The position numbers and the translations under genes are program-made. From positions 101,724-165,723 of IMG/VR virus record IMGVR_UViG_3300013383_000014: DNA of 64,000 nucleotides; one strand, given 5' to 3'. Source of the stretch: a virus (Duplodnaviria; Caudoviricetes). The notes beneath the pieces are model-generated. The model saw only the letters and a program-made list of their open reading frames with translations, was not told the origin of the DNA and did no database searches. Positions 11,937-47,053 of the stretch are shown here, one piece after another. Numbering within the stretch: the stretch's first letter is position 1; the number at the start of each line of letters is the position of its first letter.

Positions 11937-13349
11937 ATGTGAGAAAATAATAGTTGATTAGATCCTACGAATCTTACCGGAGTAAAAGCTCTAAAAACAC
12001 GCAAGAATGTTAATGAGTACGATATCCCCGATGAGTCTGGTATTATAGACGTAAATAAATTACTTGAGGATTATAACGCAGGGTCACATGCAAGAATGAT
12101 GACTGCAACACACCCAGTTACAGAAACATCTGTTGCAACTCCAGAAACTGCAAGTGCAACAAAAGTTATGACAGATCTTACGCAGGGCCAAAATGAAAAA
12201 GTGGAAAAAAAGTGAGCAAAGGAAAACAAACCAAAAGGTGATGGCGCAGATATATCTCAAAAAGGCTCTAGTGGGGTAGATATAATGAGTGCATTAACAG
12301 AGCCAGTAAATGCCGTTGGAAATGCATTATATCAAAAATCTGGAGTAGCTGGATTCGGAGCTAGTGATACTACAAAGCAAGTGAGAGATTCGATTTCTGA
12401 TGCTGCAATAAAATCTGGAAATCCATATGCGATGGCAATTGGACTTGCAACAAAGGCAGTCGATGGAATTACAGATGCGACGGGATTGCGAGCTGCAGAT
12501 TATACAGACGAACAAATAGAAGATCTGGGACTTGGAAGTGATGTTAAAGCAGCAAACTGGGTTCAACACGTTTTTAGTTCCTTACCTGGCTCAGCTGGTT
12601 TCGGAAATATTGCAACCAAAAAATTGACAAATGCAGAAATTTCTCAAGATACAGAAAATGTACGAAATGCATTTTCTGGGTCTCTTAAACAAATGGACGC
12701 AGCTGCGGCTGTTGGTGGTACTGGAATGGCATGGTTCTTACGTAGGGCGCAAAATAAAATGCAAGCAAAGATAGATGAGGCTAATGAACGAAATAAGTTG
12801 TTAACGAATATTAGTCGCACAAACACACTTGCAAAAGAAAATACTTACTCGCAGGAACTTAATGCACAAAACCAAAATAGATACTCCGGCAATAGTGGCG
12901 CAACAGCTCTTGCTAGGCATGGAATGGAATTGCCAGATAAGCATATGATTGCAGTAATCCTAGAAGCGCGCTCAAACATGCCCAAAAAGGGGGTAGAAAA
13001 GGCGTCTGACGAGTCTGAAAAGTTACCTGGCATAGATACTAATGTGATACCAGAAGGTGCCTTACATGCCCATAAGAATCATCTTGAAGAGGCAAATCCA
13101 GACATGGATAAAGTGACCGAAAAAGGCATACCAGTTATTGCTACAGATTCGCAAGGTGTTGACTATCAGCAACTTGCAGAGATCGAGTCAGCGGAAATTA
13201 TTTTTCGAAAGAAGCTTACAGATAAGATAGAGGAGTTAATGAAAGACGGTTCTGAAAAAGCAATGATACGTGCTGGCAAGTTACTTGCTCGTGAGATTAT
13301 GTGCAATACCGATGATAATACTGGAGAATTTTTAGATGGAGACGATTAA
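11937..13349 (+). CDS. Putative virion cargo protein (470 aa; codon 2 is TGA)
   Basis: ATG 1 nt after the upstream stop, in frame with track ORF 12285; Ala/Gly-rich middle; C-terminal NVIPEGALHAH..KGIPV..AEIE..AGKLL block. Confidence 0.7.
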
Positions 13350-13941
13350 TATAAAAATAGAAAAGAAGCCGTACAAAGTGCTCGCTGCCCGTACTGAAGA
13401 GGAGCGAGCACAAGGCTTACAAAATGTAGAGGAGATGGATAATGATGAGGGATGCATTTTCTTTTATGACGAACCACAACACGTTGATTTCTGAATGAAA
13501 GATTGTGACCTCGAACTAGATATTATATTTTTCGGAGAAGATAAAGAAGTTATCTCTGTTAAAAAGGGCGAACCAAATAACGAGGATTTCATTTCTGAAG
13601 ATAATGTGAAGTATGTCGTCGAGTTAAATGCTGGTAGTGATGTGGAACCCGGTGATGTACTTGAAATAGATAGCGATGATGATTACGCGGAAGAAGAATC
13701 TGACATAGAATTAGAACCGAACACAATGTATGTTATTGGTTCGGATGGGCAACCACAGGCTATATTAGAAGGTGGGGAAAGAATTATGTCAAGAAAGTCA
13801 AGCCGCATAATTATTGGAAAGGCAGAAAAAGCATTTCAAAGTAAGAGTGATGTAGATTACAAGGCGTTGGGTAGATATGTTTTTAAAGAGATAGATGCCC
13901 AAAATCATAGAAAAGCCGAGTATGTAAAAGCTAAAAATTAA
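13336..13941 (+). CDS. DUF192-family protein (201 aa)
   Basis: A.TEEERAQGL..EG..F.Y..F-W-MK..LDIIF..YVVELNAG; the W of the FWMK signature is TGA 13492-13494. Confidence 0.9.
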
Positions 13942-13947
13942 AAAATT

Positions 13948-14289
13948 ATGGGAGTTTATAAAACAAGAACAAAAGAAACAGAATTGCCTGGAACTAACGA
14001 TGTATTAGCTCAAACTAGAATAGAAACGTTTCCAGACGGAACACAACGCCAGATTGTATTTTATCCAGGGAGTTTATATGTTGGAGGATCGGCAGCCGCA
14101 GACACTACATTAATATCTCCACAACGAGATACTATATATTCTCCACACACTGGATATAATCACGACAAAACAACGGCAGGCTACCTACTTGGTGGGCAAA
14201 CAATTTCTCCAGAAGCGTGAAAGCGGATAAACATAGAAATGGACAAACTTCGTGAAAATATGCTATTTCCAGCTTTTAACCGCAGATAA
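13948..14289 (+). CDS. Hypothetical protein (113 aa)
   Basis: ORF extends through TGA 14218 to TAA 14287-14289. Confidence 0.65.
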
Positions 14290-14293
14290 TGCT

Positions 14294-14347
14294 TAGGTAT
14301 AGTTCATAGGTATATTAGGTATATTAAGTATATTAAGTATAGTTAGT
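14294..14347. repeat. AT-rich 9-bp repeats TA(G/A)GTATA(T/G)
   Basis: Copies at 14294, 14307, 14316, 14325 and 14334. Confidence 0.9.
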
Positions 14348-14451
14348 GGTCAATTTATTTCTTGATGTGGTCATTTTATTTTTTTATCTGGTCATTTTAT
14401 TTCGCGATATGGTCAATTTATTACGTGATGTGGTCATTTTATTACAGCACT
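14347..14451. repeat. Five iteron-like 21-bp direct repeats (core TGGTCAWTTTATT)
   Basis: Cores start at 14347, 14368, 14389, 14410 and 14431, an exact 21-bp period. Confidence 0.95.
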
Positions 14452-14467
14452 TTTTTATGTTTTTAGT

Positions 14468-14499
14468 ATTGCATATTAAAAATTTTTATATTATATTTG
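14468..14499 (+). promoter_or_regulatory. Bacteroidetes housekeeping-sigma promoter
   Basis: aTTG-N20-TATATTTG upstream of the HTH gene. Confidence 0.75.
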
Positions 14500-14543
14500 C
14501 ATTATAGAAAAGATTAATGAATTTATAAAAATTTTTTGAAAAA

Positions 14544-15275
14544 ATGCAACACACTGAAGTTCCACGAATATTAGACTCAATGAAATTAGCGCACACTTTA
14601 GAGCATGGCGATAAAATTATTTATGCCGCAATTAGAACGTACATGAATGAAGATACAAGAGAATGTTTCCCCGCCGTTTCGACAATTGCTGAATTATTGC
14701 AGTGTAGTACAGGAAAAATAAAACTAGCAATTGGAAGATTAATTGAAGTTGGAGTTGTACAAAAATCGAATGATGGCAGAAAAAACCATTATTATTTCCC
14801 GAGAAGTGACTGGGACAAACAATTTGAAATGTTCACAGAAGCTTTTTTAAGACTAGATATGCCATTGAATATAAAAGAATATTATATGGACATACAGCCT
14901 TTTTTATACGGAAAAGATACTGGAGTGGGGAAATGCTCGTTTACAAACACAGAACTATCCCGAAGAACGGGGTGAACAACACAATCGATTAAGAAATATA
15001 ACACTTGGCTTATCGAGCACGGATTTTTGGAAGAGCAAGCTACCGAAAAGAAAGATGAGTCCGGTCTGCCAGTTATACAAAAAAATTTCAATTTAGCTGG
15101 ACTGCAACAAGCCGCTTTGTGGGCAAAAGCTGTTACACAGCAAGTAGTTAAAAACACGTCTGATATAGAGGAAATTAAGTCTGAAAATGAGGATTTGAAA
15201 CGACGGATTGCTGCATTGGAAAGAGAAGCTGCTCTGAATAGAAATAGAGTTATAGAAAAGGAATACAAACTATAA
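14544..15275 (+). CDS. Winged-HTH (HTH_36/replication-initiator-like) DNA-binding protein (243 aa)
   Basis: IY.AI..YMN..T.ECFP..STIA..L.CS...I...I..L...G pattern; a second HTH spans TGA 14973; C-terminal coiled coil. Confidence 0.75.
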
Positions 15276-15276
15276 T

Positions 15277-15305
15277 AAAAAAGCCCCGCTATAACAGCAA
15301 GGGCT
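15277..15305 (-). terminator. Terminator (T-tract on - strand)
   Basis: A6 followed by an agccccgct..agcaagggct hairpin. Confidence 0.65.
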
Positions 15306-15372
15306 AGCAATACTTAAAAATGTTTAACGTCGTTTGCCGTAGCAGCGGTCACGCTCTTTTATTATTTTATTG
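15277..15372 (-). ncRNA. Candidate ~95-nt small RNA or micropeptide transcript
   Basis: Bounded by a - strand promoter (15378-15408) and a - strand terminator; no ATG-initiated ORF. Confidence 0.35.
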
Positions 15373-15377
15373 CAATA

Positions 15378-15408
15378 CAAAGATAAGATAATATTTTTAA
15401 AAAGCAAA
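15378..15408 (-). promoter_or_regulatory. Bacteroidetes promoter, leftward
   Basis: Reverse complement reads TTTG-N19-TATCTTTG. Confidence 0.7.
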
Positions 15409-15419
15409 CACAAAATATA

Positions 15420-15451
15420 TTTGCATATATCGAATTATTTTATTACTTTTG
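15420..15451 (+). promoter_or_regulatory. Bacteroidetes promoter for the endonuclease gene
   Basis: TTTG-N20-TACTTTTG, 20 nt before ATG 15472. Confidence 0.75.
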
Positions 15452-15471
15452 CCACAAAAGTAATATGATCT

Positions 15472-16416
15472 ATGAGAAAATTAACACAAGAAAAATTTAT
15501 AGAAAAATGTAGAGAAATTCACAAGGACAGATACGACTATAGTAAGACTATTTACTCTGGGCAAAGAAATAAAGTAATAATAACATGCAAAACACATGGA
15601 GATTTTATTCAACGAGCCGGCGCTCATTTACAAGGACAAAACTGTCCAAAATGTGCTTTAGAAAATAAAGTTCTTCCAAAGAGAATCTGAAACCCAAACG
15701 CGGAAGCCCGAAAAGAAAAATTGTTAAATCAATTTGCTAAAATCCATAATGATAAGTACATCTATAAAATAGATGGAACTGAACATATGCAAGATTGTAT
15801 AATGATTGTGTGTAAAAAACATAACTATAAATATAGACAACGGCTTACGAACCATCTTCGTGGTCATGGATGTCCAATTTGTTGTGGGAAATCAAAGCCT
15901 TTTACAACAGAGGAATTTATAATAAAGGCGAGGGAGATACATGGAAACCTTTATAGCTACGATAAAGTAGAGTATACTGATAAGGAAACACCAGTTATAA
16001 TAACATGCAAGACCCACGGTGACTTTTCGCAAAAACCACATAATCATATATGCGGAGGTGGTTGTCCATTTTGTAAAAACTGAAAAATGCAACAAAAAAT
16101 TTTTGAAAAACTAAAAGAACAATTTCCAAATGAACCGTGGATTTGGGAATATACAACGACTTGGTTGGGCTTTCAAAGAGTGGATATCTTTAATCCAAGA
16201 TTGAATCTTGCAATTGAATATAACGGAAGACAACATTATGAACCAGTTGAATTTTTTGGCGGAGAAATAGAATTTGAAAAAAGAAAGTTATTGGATAATA
16301 AGAAGAAAGATTTACTTGCAGAACATAATTGTACTTTATATATTATAAAATACGACGAATATGATGAGGCAAGTTTTTTTAAAAATATAAAAACACTTAT
16401 AGAAAATGAAAATTAA
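15472..16416 (+). CDS. Zn-repeat PD-(D/E)XK (Vsr-like) putative homing endonuclease (314 aa, 2 TGA)
   Basis: Three FI....IH...Y.Y...C..H.....H..G..CP.C repeats plus C-terminal QRVDIF..LAIEYNGRQHY; fragments in frame across TGA 15688 and 16081. Confidence 0.85.
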
Positions 16417-16720
16417 GAAATTTGATGTAAAGTACATGCAACAGGGTGGGCCTGTACCAGCAGAGGCACAGGGAGCTCCAGCACAAGAGGTGCAGCAAGC
16501 ACAAAGTGATGAACAGATGATGCAACAACTCTCACAAGTAGCACAACAAATTATCCAGGAGATGGGTCCAGATGCAGCAGCAATGCTCGCTCAGATTATT
16601 ATGGAAATGCTCCAGGGAGCAGCACAGGAAGTTGGTGCACAACCACAAGAAGTAGGTTTCCAGCGCAAGGGAGGCAAGATCTGTAAGAAGGCCTGCGGTG
16701 GAGCTAAGATTAGAAAGTAA
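16406..16720 (+). CDS. Small Gln/Ala-rich putative virion protein
   Basis: Intact ORF with KYMQQGG and QRKGGKI motifs; followed by a terminator. Confidence 0.7.
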   Translation: MKIKKFDVKYMQQGGPVPAEAQGAPAQEVQQAQSDEQMMQQLSQVAQQIIQEMGPDAAAMLAQIIMEMLQGAAQEVGAQPQEVGFQRKGGKICKKACGGAKIRK

Positions 16721-44000: not shown

Positions 44001-45636
44001 TAATCGCTCAAATGTTAGTAGAAAAGTACTCCCAATTATTACTGGCCTTAAAATGGGTCTTGAATATCGAGACGCGCATGGATCTTTTGAAAATAAAGGA
44101 AAGCGCCAGGATATGGCAAACATTAGAAAACGTTTTGACCAAATTGTAAAAAGTAAACTTTATGGAGAATCGATTGTCCCAGAGAAAGCACAAGGCTTGC
44201 TAAAGTTTATTAACTTAGTTAAATCGTTTTTTACAACAATGACCCTTTCTTTAAATAGTAGATCTTTCTTACGAGAAACTTTATCTGGTATTTACAATGG
44301 AGTTAGCCGAGCTGGAGTAAAAATGTACCCAGGAATTGACGAAAAACACTATATTGAAGGACTAACTTACGTTATGCAAGAATGCCCTAAAAATTTTAGT
44401 GGAGTTAGTCTTTTACAACAACTAAATGCGGTTTATGGAATGGCAAACCAGTCGCTTAACCAGTTGCAGGGATATAAAGTTAATTGGGCGCATATTAGCC
44501 ATTGGGGAAAAGACACAGCATTTTTGACGGCCTCTTCCCCAGACTTCTTGCATAGAATGGCATTACTTATTGCCAAAATGAAAAGTGACGGTTGTTTTGA
44601 TGCTTATTCGCTTGATGAAAATGGATTGTTAAAATACGACTTTAAAAAGGATAGGCGATTTGAACATTTCGTTAATGGAGAAACTACAAATGAGAATTAT
44701 TTAAAAGAAAAGTCATTATATTTAACAATGATCGATGAGTTCAATAAAACCGGCTTTAAAAATCCAGACGGAACACAACTAAATGCAGAGAATATGGATG
44801 CATTACCACAGGCATATACACGAATTGAGGGGCAGAGTATTAAAAACTTTGCAGATTTATTATATGGCCATTATGATGATGAATCGAAGTCGTTGTTATG
44901 TGACACTTTCTTAGGTTCTATTTTCTTGCAGTACAAGACATTTTTAACAGCAAAAGTTGAGCAGCTCACAATGACGAAAGGAGTTTATAATACTGCCCAA
45001 TTAAAACAACAGTTTGATAAAGACGGAAATCCATTATATGTTAAATATTACTGGGACGAAGATAACAAACCACATAAAGACACAATTTTACAAAGCGAAT
45101 ATGAAGCACTTTCTGATGAAGAAAAAAAGGCATGTAGGTTGTTGTTTGCTTATGAAGGTTCTCCAATGCAAGGTATTTTCCAGGAGTCCATGAATGTTTA
45201 TAAAACATTATTAACAATGAATCCAGAAAAGATTAAAAAGGTATGGAGTGACCAAACAACGAGAGCAATGTTTATGTTGCAAATACATGATTTGTGGTTC
45301 TTAGGGTTGATGATATTCCTAGTCACTTATGTGTTTGGTACAATGGAAGACTTGGATGATCCACTCAACCAGAAGGCTGTATATAGTGCAATGCGTAAAG
45401 CTGGACCAGTTGAAAGTCTTGCATATAATGTACTTGCTGGATCTATGGCAGATTTTTCGTTGCCAAATATAATTAACTCGTTTACAGATAAGCCGCCAGT
45501 AGTATCTGCCCTCTCAAAATTTGCTACAACTTCAATGAATTTAATTACCGGTGATTCGTCCGTTACAAATTGATTAACACGAAATATTGGTGCAATTAGA
45601 GATCTTGAGGGACTTACAAATATGATTGATGAATAA
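41041..45636 (+). CDS. Giant putative virion protein with N-terminal RecB-type PD-(D/E)XK nuclease domain (1531 aa)
   Basis: GTEVH..E..GVIDLL..DYK..QLELY motif series; one frame through TGA; hydrophobic helix near the C-terminus; TAA 45634-45636. Confidence 0.85.
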
Positions 45637-45639
45637 TTA

Positions 45640-45685
45640 AAAAAATAACCCCTACACAACCGAAAGGTCATGTAGGGGTTTTATT
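45640..45685. terminator. Bidirectional terminator at the convergence of the two gene blocks
   Basis: aacccctaca / tgtaggggtt stem with inner acc-GAAA-ggt; A-run before and T-run after. Confidence 0.85.
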
Positions 45686-45731
45686 ATATGATATTGTTCC
45701 AAATAAAATTCACAATTTTGTGAAAAAATAG

Positions 45732-45764
45732 CTACTACAATAGCTAAAACCTCTATTGTAGTAG
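45732..45764. repeat. Perfect 12-bp inverted repeat
   Basis: ctactacaatag-N9-ctattgtagtag. Confidence 0.85.
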
Positions 45765-45919
45765 TCAAAAGTTGTTCTGTAGGAAACTAGTGTTTCTCTG
45801 TAACTAACTAATATATAATGTATTAACCCTATTTTTAACAATAATCTCTTCTTATCTAATTATTAGTTTTGTAAAATATTTTTATAAATACAAAATAAAT
45901 AAACAATTATTTTTTATTA

Positions 45920-46015
45920 TGAAAAAATGTGCGCACTCTGCGCATATATTTTCATAATAGTGCGCATATATTTTCAACTAACTATACTTAATATATACTT
46001 AATAACTATACTTAA
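45920..46015. repeat. Orphan iteron-like repeats plus AT-rich TATACTTAA repeats
   Basis: tgcgcatatattttca at 45939 and 45961 (22-bp period); inverted copy with 2 mismatches at 45920-45935; then three tatacttaa. Confidence 0.85.
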
Positions 46016-46030
46016 ATAAATTTCAAAAGA

Positions 46031-46070
46031 AAAAATAAGGGGCGTGTAGCATAAAACTACACACCCCTAT
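46031..46070 (-). terminator. Terminator of the RepL-like gene
   Basis: aggggcgtgtag / ctacacacccct stem preceded by an A-run. Confidence 0.75.
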
Positions 46071-46073
46071 ATA

Positions 46074-46535
46074 TTATTCTTCTGTTGTTTCATCTTCCGT
46101 GTAAGTCAAGATAACTTTTCTAGTTTTTGGTAATTCATTAATTTTCCCCTTATAAAAATACTTCGGATTCAAATAATATGTCGATCTATGTTTTGGATCT
46201 TTTATGATTGTTTGTGATTTTGCCAGCCCTGAAATACAGTTTCTAATCGTTTGTCTTTTTATTCCGAGATCATTTTCAATTTTATCAAAAAGTAAATCTC
46301 CTACAACTATACAATTCCCAGTCATTCCGTCATCTGGGTAAGACGAAAATTTTCACAACCAAGCTAACACTCGCAACTCCGTCTGCGTTTTTATATTCAT
46401 TATTCCGGATAAATCGTTCAGATATAAATAAATAAAATTATCTTTTGTGTACTTTCTCTCTGCCACGATTGTAGTGGTTTCTTCTAAAATTTCTCCAGTG
46501 TTGGAGTCTACTACTGTTTTCTTTTGCTCTTTCAT
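46074..46535 (-). CDS. RepL-like (plasmid replication protein family) wHTH protein (153 aa)
   Basis: VDSNTGEI N-terminus, F..LY, HTH and YYLNPKYFYKG; the two track ORFs join across TGA 46353-46355. Confidence 0.75.
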
Positions 46536-46571
46536 AATTTTTATACTTTTGTTAACTACATTTTTATACTG

Positions 46572-46603
46572 CAAATATAGTTATATTTTTTATAAAAAGC
46601 AAG
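46572..46603 (-). promoter_or_regulatory. Bacteroidetes promoter for the RepL-like gene
   Basis: Reverse complement cTTG-N20-TATATTTG. Confidence 0.7.
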
Positions 46604-46620
46604 AGTTTCTACTTTTTTTC

Positions 46621-46694
46621 GAGTATAAAGATTGTATCAATGGAGTATAAAAGTAGTGTCAATGGAGTATAAATATTATATAACTGGAGTATAA
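46621..46694. repeat. Four iteron-like 22-bp repeats (core (TG)GAGTATAA)
   Basis: GAGTATAA at 46621, 46643, 46665 and 46687. Confidence 0.9.
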
Positions 46695-46763
46695 CTTTTC
46701 ACATCAACGTGTTATATATCAGGAACTTAACTATGTTTTTCCTATATTTATATTATATATAAC

Positions 46764-46803
46764 AAAAAAATAAGGGCCATACAGCTTTCGCCATATGACC
46801 CTA
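46764..46803 (-). terminator. Terminator ending the long - strand operon
   Basis: A7 plus an agggccata..tatgaccct hairpin just after stop 46808. Confidence 0.65.
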
Positions 46804-46807
46804 TATA

Positions 46808-47053
46808 TTACTCTTCGTACTTTTTTAATATTTCATCAAACTTTTCCTCAGGAAAATCATCCTCCATTGCGTTGTCTATAATTTCGTACACCTTAGGTGC
46901 TCCCTTTTTAAACATATTTTTTACTCTATCAAAGTAATTTCTTCTATGCTCCTCCATTGTAACAAGCACAATTCCAAAAAGAGCCATGAAAAACATTCCT
47001 GCAAACACAGAAAGTACAAGCAAAATTGCCAAAATAATAATTGTTGCTACCAT
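46808..47053 (-). CDS. Small membrane protein
   Basis: N-terminal ~32-aa hydrophobic stretch; TAATG coupling. Confidence 0.7.
   Translation of the reverse strand: MVATIIILAILLVLSVFAGMFFMALFGIVLVTMEEHRRNYFDRVKNMFKKGAPKVYEIIDNAMEDDFPEEKFDEILKKYEE

Follow-up and report, generated by a model that had tools for sequence, protein, structure and literature searches.

Repeats, promoter and gene of the cassette

The last 64 kb of a single viral contig of 165,723 bp (IMG/VR record IMGVR_UViG_3300013383_000014; completeness 94% by CheckV), which we analyzed as one window of 64,000 nucleotides (nt), carry on the + strand a cassette in which two kinds of direct repeats are followed by a promoter match and by the gene for a 243-amino-acid (aa) initiator-like protein, P0001 (positions 14544 to 15275; coordinates are those of the window unless the genome is named). 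We put at about 0.55 the probability that this cassette is an active accessory iteron-type origin together with its initiator, drawn from a modular family in large crAss-like phages that have recoded TGA.

The cassette opens with a constant AT-rich block (14294 to 14346) of five TA(A/G)GTATA units, which start on the + strand at 14294, 14307, 14316, 14325 and 14334, the first and the last having an extended form that ends in GTT. Five private iterons follow directly (14346 to 14443, + strand); their core, TGGTCAWTTTATT, recurs perfectly at 14347, 14368, 14389, 14410 and 14431, an exact period of 21 bp or two helical turns, and has no other perfect match in the 64 kb. Tandem Repeats Finder gave the constant block a score of 57 (period 9, 4.3 copies) and the iterons a score of 126 (period 21, 4.7 copies), the top score of the window. 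An earlier reading made from the letters alone (hereafter the sequence-only reading) had described both sets of repeats, with their number and the spacing of the cores, and both were recovered as described. The array, whose 21-bp period falls within the ~17–22 bp expected of Rep_3-type iterons, adjoins the gene, lying at most 113 nt upstream of its ATG, and no tandem array was found inside the gene itself (14544 to 15275). A partial direct copy of the iteron, TGAATTTAT, lies in the 5′ untranslated region at ~14518 and is not conserved in orthologues; in two paralogous cassettes of the same genome (A and B, see below) there are possible inverted partial copies.

Between the array and the gene, a match to the Bacteroidota-type −33/−7 promoter was found on the + strand (14469 to 14497), consisting of TTG at 14469, 18 nt and TAtaTTTG at 14490 to 14497. 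The host-type promoter of the sequence-only reading therefore stands as a consensus match, in its Bacteroidota form, and the identical form occurs upstream of the next gene (15420 to 15451) and of every paralogous cassette. A scan with the σ70 consensus was uninformative, returning 12 sites where 12.5 were expected; it is the Bacteroidota consensus that fits. The promoter stretch is also the most AT-rich part of the region, with a guanine-plus-cytosine (GC) content of 13% at 14450 to 14549 and of 13–30% across 14300 to 14550. An AT-rich element with repeated units is present beside the iterons, as the five TARGTATA units abut the array; its melting is putative.

The gene for P0001 is open only when TGA is read as tryptophan. 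The codon in question, at 14973 to 14975 (+ strand), specifies Trp144; read by the standard code, the gene would yield a product of only 143 residues. Six of seven orthologues have TGA at the equivalent of Trp144, compared with 47% use of TGA for Trp in the + strand block of the genome.

P0001 consists of a first winged-helix domain (residues ~3–88), a second (~89–183) and a coiled coil (190–233). Pfam assigned it to HTH_36 (7.9e-13; 48.4 bits against a cut-off of 25) and placed it just under the cut-off for DnaD_N (25.2 against 27 bits), which three paralogues exceed (27.4–31.6 bits); Phage_rep_O was seen below threshold in one paralogue only (21.2 against 28.7 bits). The N-terminal domain matched PHROG families annotated as DnaD-like helicase loader, replication initiation O-like and replication initiation protein (6e-11 to 1e-7). 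NCBIfam gave only sub-threshold matches of the regulator-type winged-helix kind, and a profile search of Protein Data Bank (PDB) sequences with P0001 gave nothing below E 0.004. An AlphaFold model built with 60 homologues was confident (predicted local distance difference test score 86.7, predicted template modelling (TM) score 0.75) and shows two winged-helix domains followed by a helix at 190–233; together with the Pfam result it bears out the double helix-turn-helix and coiled-coil protein of the sequence-only reading.

With this model as the query, ranks 1–30 of Foldseek were taken up entirely by RepE54 or by RepE bound to single strands of the DNA unwinding element (DUE), and pi came at rank 38 (E ~1e-4, TM scores 0.37–0.54). 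A search independent of Foldseek, run against representatives, had pi at the top (Z 8.4 over 178 residues) and RctB next (Z 6.7), and re-alignment to RepE54 gave Z 8.4–8.5 at a root mean square deviation of 4.3 Å over 176–177 residues, covering residues 1–186 of the model. After the initiators the structural list drops to single winged-helix proteins at Z 5.8, and the only whole-length matches are the iteron initiators RepE, pi and RctB. Over its DNA-binding part, P0001 is thus predicted to be a two-winged-helix fold of the RepE/pi type. Among 26 non-redundant members of the family, the most variable parts are the recognition helices and wings, and the most conserved are strand β1, the α2 motif AIRxYMN and residues 89–102.

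Relatives of the cassette and the pairing of protein with iterons

P0001 had 168 matches in a 90%-clustered protein collection, many of them on contigs of 140–170 kb, and a 50%-clustered library held 157 representatives at E ≤ 1e-30 and 428 at E ≤ 1e-10. Many database entries of the family are pieces of 143–153 or ~192 aa, which match open reading frames (ORFs) cut at the recoded TGA, indicating that gene calling under the standard code has broken up the family in public databases. At all 13 of the IMG/VR loci found through the protein, the constant repeats, a private array and the promoter were present. An additional scan of IMG/VR DNA, which asked for two copies of the constant motif alone, returned at least 114 loci: in at least 25 a family gene followed within ~50–260 nt, in at least three a RepL-like gene lay further downstream (in two of these three after an orphan array and with a separate array of its own), and the remainder include chance matches. 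After removal of duplicates at least 31 distinct cassettes were obtained, with spacings of 20–23 bp and ~20 different cores; most of their arrays were found by an automatic detector and most of the others by eye, one locus being weak and one unassessable.

Orthologues of P0001 share the virion-module site, between a DUF192 gene and a 104-aa gene, and their cassettes and flanks have ~72–82% nucleotide identity. The core is kept, in five copies each, in the orthologues with 91% and 72% protein identity (AGGTCAATTYATT and TAGTCAATTYATT). Two more distant orthologues (65% and 64% identity) have a core whose left half has drifted (GTATTAATCTATT and TATCAATTTATT), and a relative at 58% identity has an unrelated core, TTTGCCTACC. 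A natural exchange was found by comparing loci L002 and L003. Their identity is 99.6% as far as the final base of the constant repeats. They then become unrelated over a stretch that takes in the iterons, the promoter and codons 1–90, and are 60–76% identical up to about codon 170; beyond that point the proteins are identical and the DNA is 98–100% identical, also downstream of the gene. This pattern indicates that a single block carrying the iterons and both helix-turn-helix regions was exchanged, and that one of its breakpoints is at the constant repeats. The sequence-only reading would have been contradicted by orthologues that lack upstream repeats; every relative examined has them, and they change with the protein. 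On this comparative evidence, P0001 and its iterons appear to have cognate specificity, with binding putative.

The array can also be met on its own. A GGTTTAAAAATACAAT array with constant repeats precedes a family gene at L007, L011 and L014. At L043 and L119 a GGTTTAAAAATACAAT array stands without a family gene, and after it come a further array of another kind and a RepL-like gene. This arrangement suggests that at these two loci the initiator gene was lost or replaced, leaving an orphan array.

The region 13300 to 16500 had no blastn match among GenBank phages, and tblastn of P0001 against the same phages gave only a weak Parageobacillus match. Literature searches returned no paper joining crAss-like phages with iterons, or with an origin and direct repeats, and the RepE-fold family, the combination of constant and private repeats, the multiple copies and the specificity swaps appear to be undescribed in the literature searched.

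Further cassettes in the genome and their setting

The family profile finds four copies in the genome, at 47.3, 48.4, 53.5 and 116.3 kb, and the three paralogues have 57%, 36% and 30% identity to P0001. Each of the four cassettes has 3–5 repeats of the TAAGTATAG type, then an array of its own with 4–5 repeats at 20–21 bp, and then the same form of promoter. In total the genome holds four paralogous cassettes, one orphan array (unit E) and one RepL-type cassette (cassette F); most of these open with TAAGTATAG repeats followed by a distinct 20–22-bp array, the constant motif heading cassettes A, B and C as well as unit E. The self-contained cassette of the sequence-only reading thus kept its anatomy, and it is one member of a multi-copy modular family rather than a lone unit. 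Nor is it fully self-contained, because the full-length protein needs the TGA-suppressor tRNA of the phage. Three of the four family genes carry exactly one TGA, at differing places, and paralogue B carries none; paralogue B could be made in full before the suppressor tRNA acts.

Unit E lies on the − strand (45920 to 46015) and consists of three TAAGTATAG repeats (45983 to 46014) followed by two direct and one inverted repeat of the TGCGCATATATTTTCA type. Those three copies form the only other TARGTATA cluster in the window, and the 19 nt at the end of the constant block of the P0001 cassette (14329 to 14347) recur here exactly, reverse-complemented, at 45977 to 45995. No initiator gene follows the array; cognate-looking TGCGCA arrays like that of unit E occur with a family gene in other phages. 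Downstream of the orphan array, on the − strand, the stretch 45690 to 45920 is AT-rich at first and then contains a short segment ending in a strong T-run hairpin (~45733 to 45765). It has no convincing ORF and no Rfam match, and may represent a small RNA unit of the convergent junction; more widely, Rfam gave nothing credible in 13800 to 16600 or in 45500 to 46900.

Cassette F (46074 to 46694, − strand) has about four 22-bp repeats (46621 to 46694), a promoter and a gene with one TGA for a RepL-like protein, P0002 (Pfam RepL, 3.7e-06; 27 bits against a cut-off of 20.3). It shares the layout of private array, promoter and gene, and has the constant motif only in a weak version.

Up to 46.8 kb the genes of the genome are on the − strand; a + strand block then runs from 47.3 to 147.3 kb, and from 147.8 kb the genes are on the − strand again. 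The cumulative GC skew has its minimum at 44–50 kb and its maximum at ~146 kb. Cassette A opens the + strand block as its first gene and coincides with the skew minimum. At the convergent strand junction lie the orphan unit and the RepL cassette, with the RepL-like gene at the end of the − strand block. Genes for primase, helicase and a PolA-type polymerase are found at 10.7–19.7 kb of the genome, ~100 kb from the P0001 cassette.

The long genes of the window, like that of P0001, stay open only with TGA as a sense codon. Outside the window the genome encodes a tRNA with anticodon TCA (genome c28249-28322, 74 nt, labeled SeC by ARAGORN), which is likely the UGA suppressor on which the recoding depends. 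At 36.9–44.7 kb the genome has four ordinary tRNAs. The 1419-aa protein encoded upstream of the cassette belongs to the Pfam Crassvirus muzzle protein family (3.8e-29), as expected from the virion-module location given in the sequence-only reading. Its best tblastn matches were unannotated faecal phages and Flavobacterium phages, which had raised doubt about the crAss-like label; the muzzle-family match settles it. Taken with the TGA recoding, this match indicates that the phage is a large crAss-like one with TGA recoded and that the cassette lies in its virion module.

The immediate neighbors of the cassette are a DUF192 gene, a 113-aa ORF, an HNH endonuclease gene and a 104-aa ORF. Just 3′ of the stop codon there is a GC-rich hairpin (15283 to 15303), a possible terminator; its T-run is on the − strand, so that termination on the + strand is not evident at this site. 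The HNH homing endonuclease gene, which has three in-frame TGA codons (phrog_559, 9.2e-54; within 15420 to 16416), directly follows the cassette and has the Bacteroidota-type promoter at 15420 to 15451 as its own. Compared with the 91% orthologue, two insertions flank the cassette, one of 351 bp (13938 to 14288) and one made up of the HNH gene (15472 to 16416). The former is an insertion relative to L132, L134 and L002, contains the 113-aa ORF with one TGA and no family match, and stops exactly at the start of the cassette. The HNH gene is absent from the closest relative, L132, and in L002 the downstream slot is occupied by a different endonuclease-like ORF fused to an HTH_36-like region.

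A proposed accessory origin weighed against other functions

The order of elements in the cassette is that of Rep_3-type replicons. In RepE/ori2 of mini-F, pi/γ-ori of R6K and RepA of pPS10, and with RctB of Vibrio chromosome 2, AT-rich repeats, four to five direct repeats of ~21 bp, a promoter and the initiator gene follow one another in the same way; the initiators share the two-winged-helix fold (Z 8.4–8.5 for RepE54, 8.4 for pi and 6.7–7.8 for RctB), and the iterons are private to each protein. Unlike in these systems, the phage protein has an added C-terminal coiled coil and a recoded stop in its gene, and the phage cassettes have AT-rich repeats that are identical across specificities and occur several to a genome, one of them inside the virion module.

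The cassette also resembles the O/ori-λ system of lambdoid phages and the DnaD-like replication organizers (HTH_36, DnaD_N, Phage_rep_O), whose families the N-terminal winged helix of P0001 matches. The exchange of a type-specific initiator and its iterons as a unit between related phages is the classic lambdoid pattern. However, the λ iterons lie inside the O gene, whereas those of the phage cassette lie upstream, with none internal, and λ O has a single N-terminal DNA-binding domain and a P-binding domain, whereas the fold of P0001 matches RepE and pi.

A third comparison is with the prototypic crAssphage, for which a phage-plasmid nature has been proposed: a RepL gene lies at either end of one strand block, and an origin is predicted immediately before the first of the two (Schmidtke et al. 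2024, preprint; PMC10983915). Both genomes have plasmid-type initiator genes at module boundaries, the RepL-like gene of the present one being at the end of the − block. By contrast, PMC10983915 mentions no iterons or shared AT-rich repeats, the main family here is of the RepE-fold HTH_36 type rather than RepL, and the P0001 cassette lies inside the virion module and not at a boundary.

An iteron origin with its initiator is the best reading of the cassette because the layout, the fold, the kinship by hidden Markov models, the private pairing, the reuse of the layout by RepL and the strand-switch paralogue all agree. Several results weigh against it. By Pfam, no Rep_3 (PF01051) match was found for P0001 or anywhere in the genome at E ≤ 1, so that P0001 would have the shape of an iteron initiator without membership of the Rep_3 family. 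The structural Z of ~8.4 is only middling, and tandem winged-helix folds are known in non-initiator proteins too. No plasmid homologues were found in PLSDB, where tblastn gave nothing for P0001 and, for P0003, only weak Bacillus helix-turn-helix matches; by sequence there is therefore no plasmid precedent. Two differences from Rep_3 systems were noted. No conserved inverted-repeat operator, the half-iteron element through which initiator dimers repress their own gene in those systems, was found to overlap the promoter, and there is no DnaA box (TTATCCACA, at ≤ 1 mismatch) in 14290 to 14543, nor an enrichment of such boxes in the window. A DnaA box in the origin is common among Gram-negative iteron plasmids. 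Across cassettes, N-terminal identity and iteron similarity are weakly correlated (Mantel rho 0.19, p ~0.05). The covariation of repeats with the helix-turn-helix regions that the sequence-only reading had proposed to look for is thus explicit in L002/L003 and in the drift among orthologues and weak as a global statistic, and the strong evidence for pairing rests on a few clear cases.

Further points concern the site. Skew analysis, another check put forward in the sequence-only reading, was negative or uninformative: neither GC skew nor third-codon-position (GC3) skew has an inflection at the virion-module cassette. This is weak negative evidence, because skew also follows gene orientation. 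A complete related genome of 152 kb has one family gene and another, of 159 kb, has two adjacent ones (other records have two or three), and the copies in these two complete relatives reach at best E ~1e-58, compared with 1e-116 to 1e-124 for the lineage of the cassette. The virion-module lineage thus appears to be lineage-specific and dispensable, as judged from these sequence matches to copies that are unplaced by gene module. In summary, the anatomy and the initiator kinship of the sequence-only reading hold, and its origin activity stands as a candidate, with no skew inflection and a lineage apparently lacking in two complete relatives. The virion-module cassette would be an extra, lineage-specific origin whose firing is putative, and cassette A, the strand-switch paralogue, is likelier to be the primary one.

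Some of the same observations suit a different function, in which the protein descends from an initiator but no longer fires. As a DNA-binding regulator or a copy-control (incompatibility or exclusion) unit, it would act on its own promoter or on neighboring late genes, or titrate or handcuff the arrays of co-infecting relatives. The array ends ~25 bp upstream of the −33 element, so that bound protein could act on the promoter, and the coiled coil suits pairing; yet plain repression leaves the conserved AT-rich block beside every array without an obvious role, and the matches of the whole protein, by fold and by hidden Markov model, are to initiators and not to one-domain repressors, although one source names a homologue as a MarR-family regulator. 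Gene-less orphan arrays recall the inc loci of iteron plasmids, and a cassette that is dispensable in complete relatives and causes no skew inflection need not be an origin. However, a RepL-family protein uses the same layout, and one paralogue lies at the strand-switch and skew-minimum position expected of an origin. We consider a regulatory or copy-control role unlikely on balance, while the best placed of the alternatives.

Considerably less probable is that the cassette is a selfish or mobile unit, which would spread with the constant repeats as sites of recombination or with neighboring homing endonucleases as helpers and whose activity would serve its own persistence rather than the phage. 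The copy number of 1 to 4 among relatives, the breaks of specificity swaps exactly at the constant repeats, the 351-bp insertion directly upstream and the homing-endonuclease-type genes in the downstream slot (HNH here, none in L132, another ORF in L002) would all fit such a unit, but neither a transposase or integrase nor terminal inverted repeats were seen. The virion-module site, moreover, is stably syntenic among relatives ~72–82% identical in nucleotides, a pattern more in keeping with vertical inheritance and occasional recombination than with frequent transposition. A partition (centromere) site with its binding protein, serving plasmid-like segregation, is very improbable: tandem direct repeats ahead of a gene for a winged-helix protein recall tubC/TubR and parC/ParR, weak profile matches to TubR and AspA were obtained (E 0.16–0.35) and a phage-plasmid lifestyle has been proposed for crAssphage (PMC10983915), but there is no NTPase partner beside the gene and no ParA-type AAA_31 match in the genome, and the best structural matches are two-domain initiators rather than TubR or ParR.

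If the cassette is an accessory origin, its action can be pictured as follows. Host RNA polymerase would transcribe the gene from the Bacteroidota-type promoter, as the consensus match suggests, and with TGA as the codon for Trp144 the full-length protein would presumably be made only once the UGA-suppressor tRNA is active. By analogy with RepE and pi, the two winged-helix domains would then bind the five 21-bp iterons, with copies on one face of the DNA; relatives in which iterons and recognition regions were replaced jointly or drifted together lend support to this step. The loaded array may open adjacent AT-rich DNA, either at the shared TAAGTATAG repeats or in the 13%-GC promoter stretch, after which the phage helicase, primase and PolA-type polymerase, encoded ~100 kb away, would take over. 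The coiled coil could pair bound arrays and so limit firing. In RepE and TrfA, one face contacts the iterons and the opposite face holds the repeated DUE elements in single-stranded form; origin activity requires all of the repeats (PMC4081077, PMC10602881). The constant AT-rich repeats may be a parallel to these DUE repeats. Since they are common to cassettes with unrelated iterons, they would be read by a conserved face of the initiator or by a common factor of the replisome.

A more general model is tentative, and we hold it with less confidence than the reading of the single cassette as an accessory origin. According to this model, large crAss-like phages replicate from one to four interchangeable plug-in origins, each made of a universal AT-rich block, private iterons and a matching RepE-fold initiator; specificity would be swapped at the constant block through recombination, orphan arrays would be kept as control sites, and most initiators would be gated by a recoded stop.

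Crassvirales are among the most abundant viruses of the gut, so that how they start replication and how they persist without lysogeny matter, and the only published lead that we found is the RepL pair of the prototypic crAssphage. The cassette family offers short, defined candidate origins with matched proteins, and its natural specificity swaps are ready-made controls. If the cassettes are active, they could seed replicons or vectors for Bacteroidota, and they would be an example of the modular evolution of origin specificity, possibly coupled to stop-codon recoding. Should the plug-in model be true, the extra origins, including the one in the virion module, would fire only after the switch of genetic code, and co-infecting phages would fall into incompatibility groups set by their private replicons, which could also be the basis of the plasmid-like persistence of Crassvirales.

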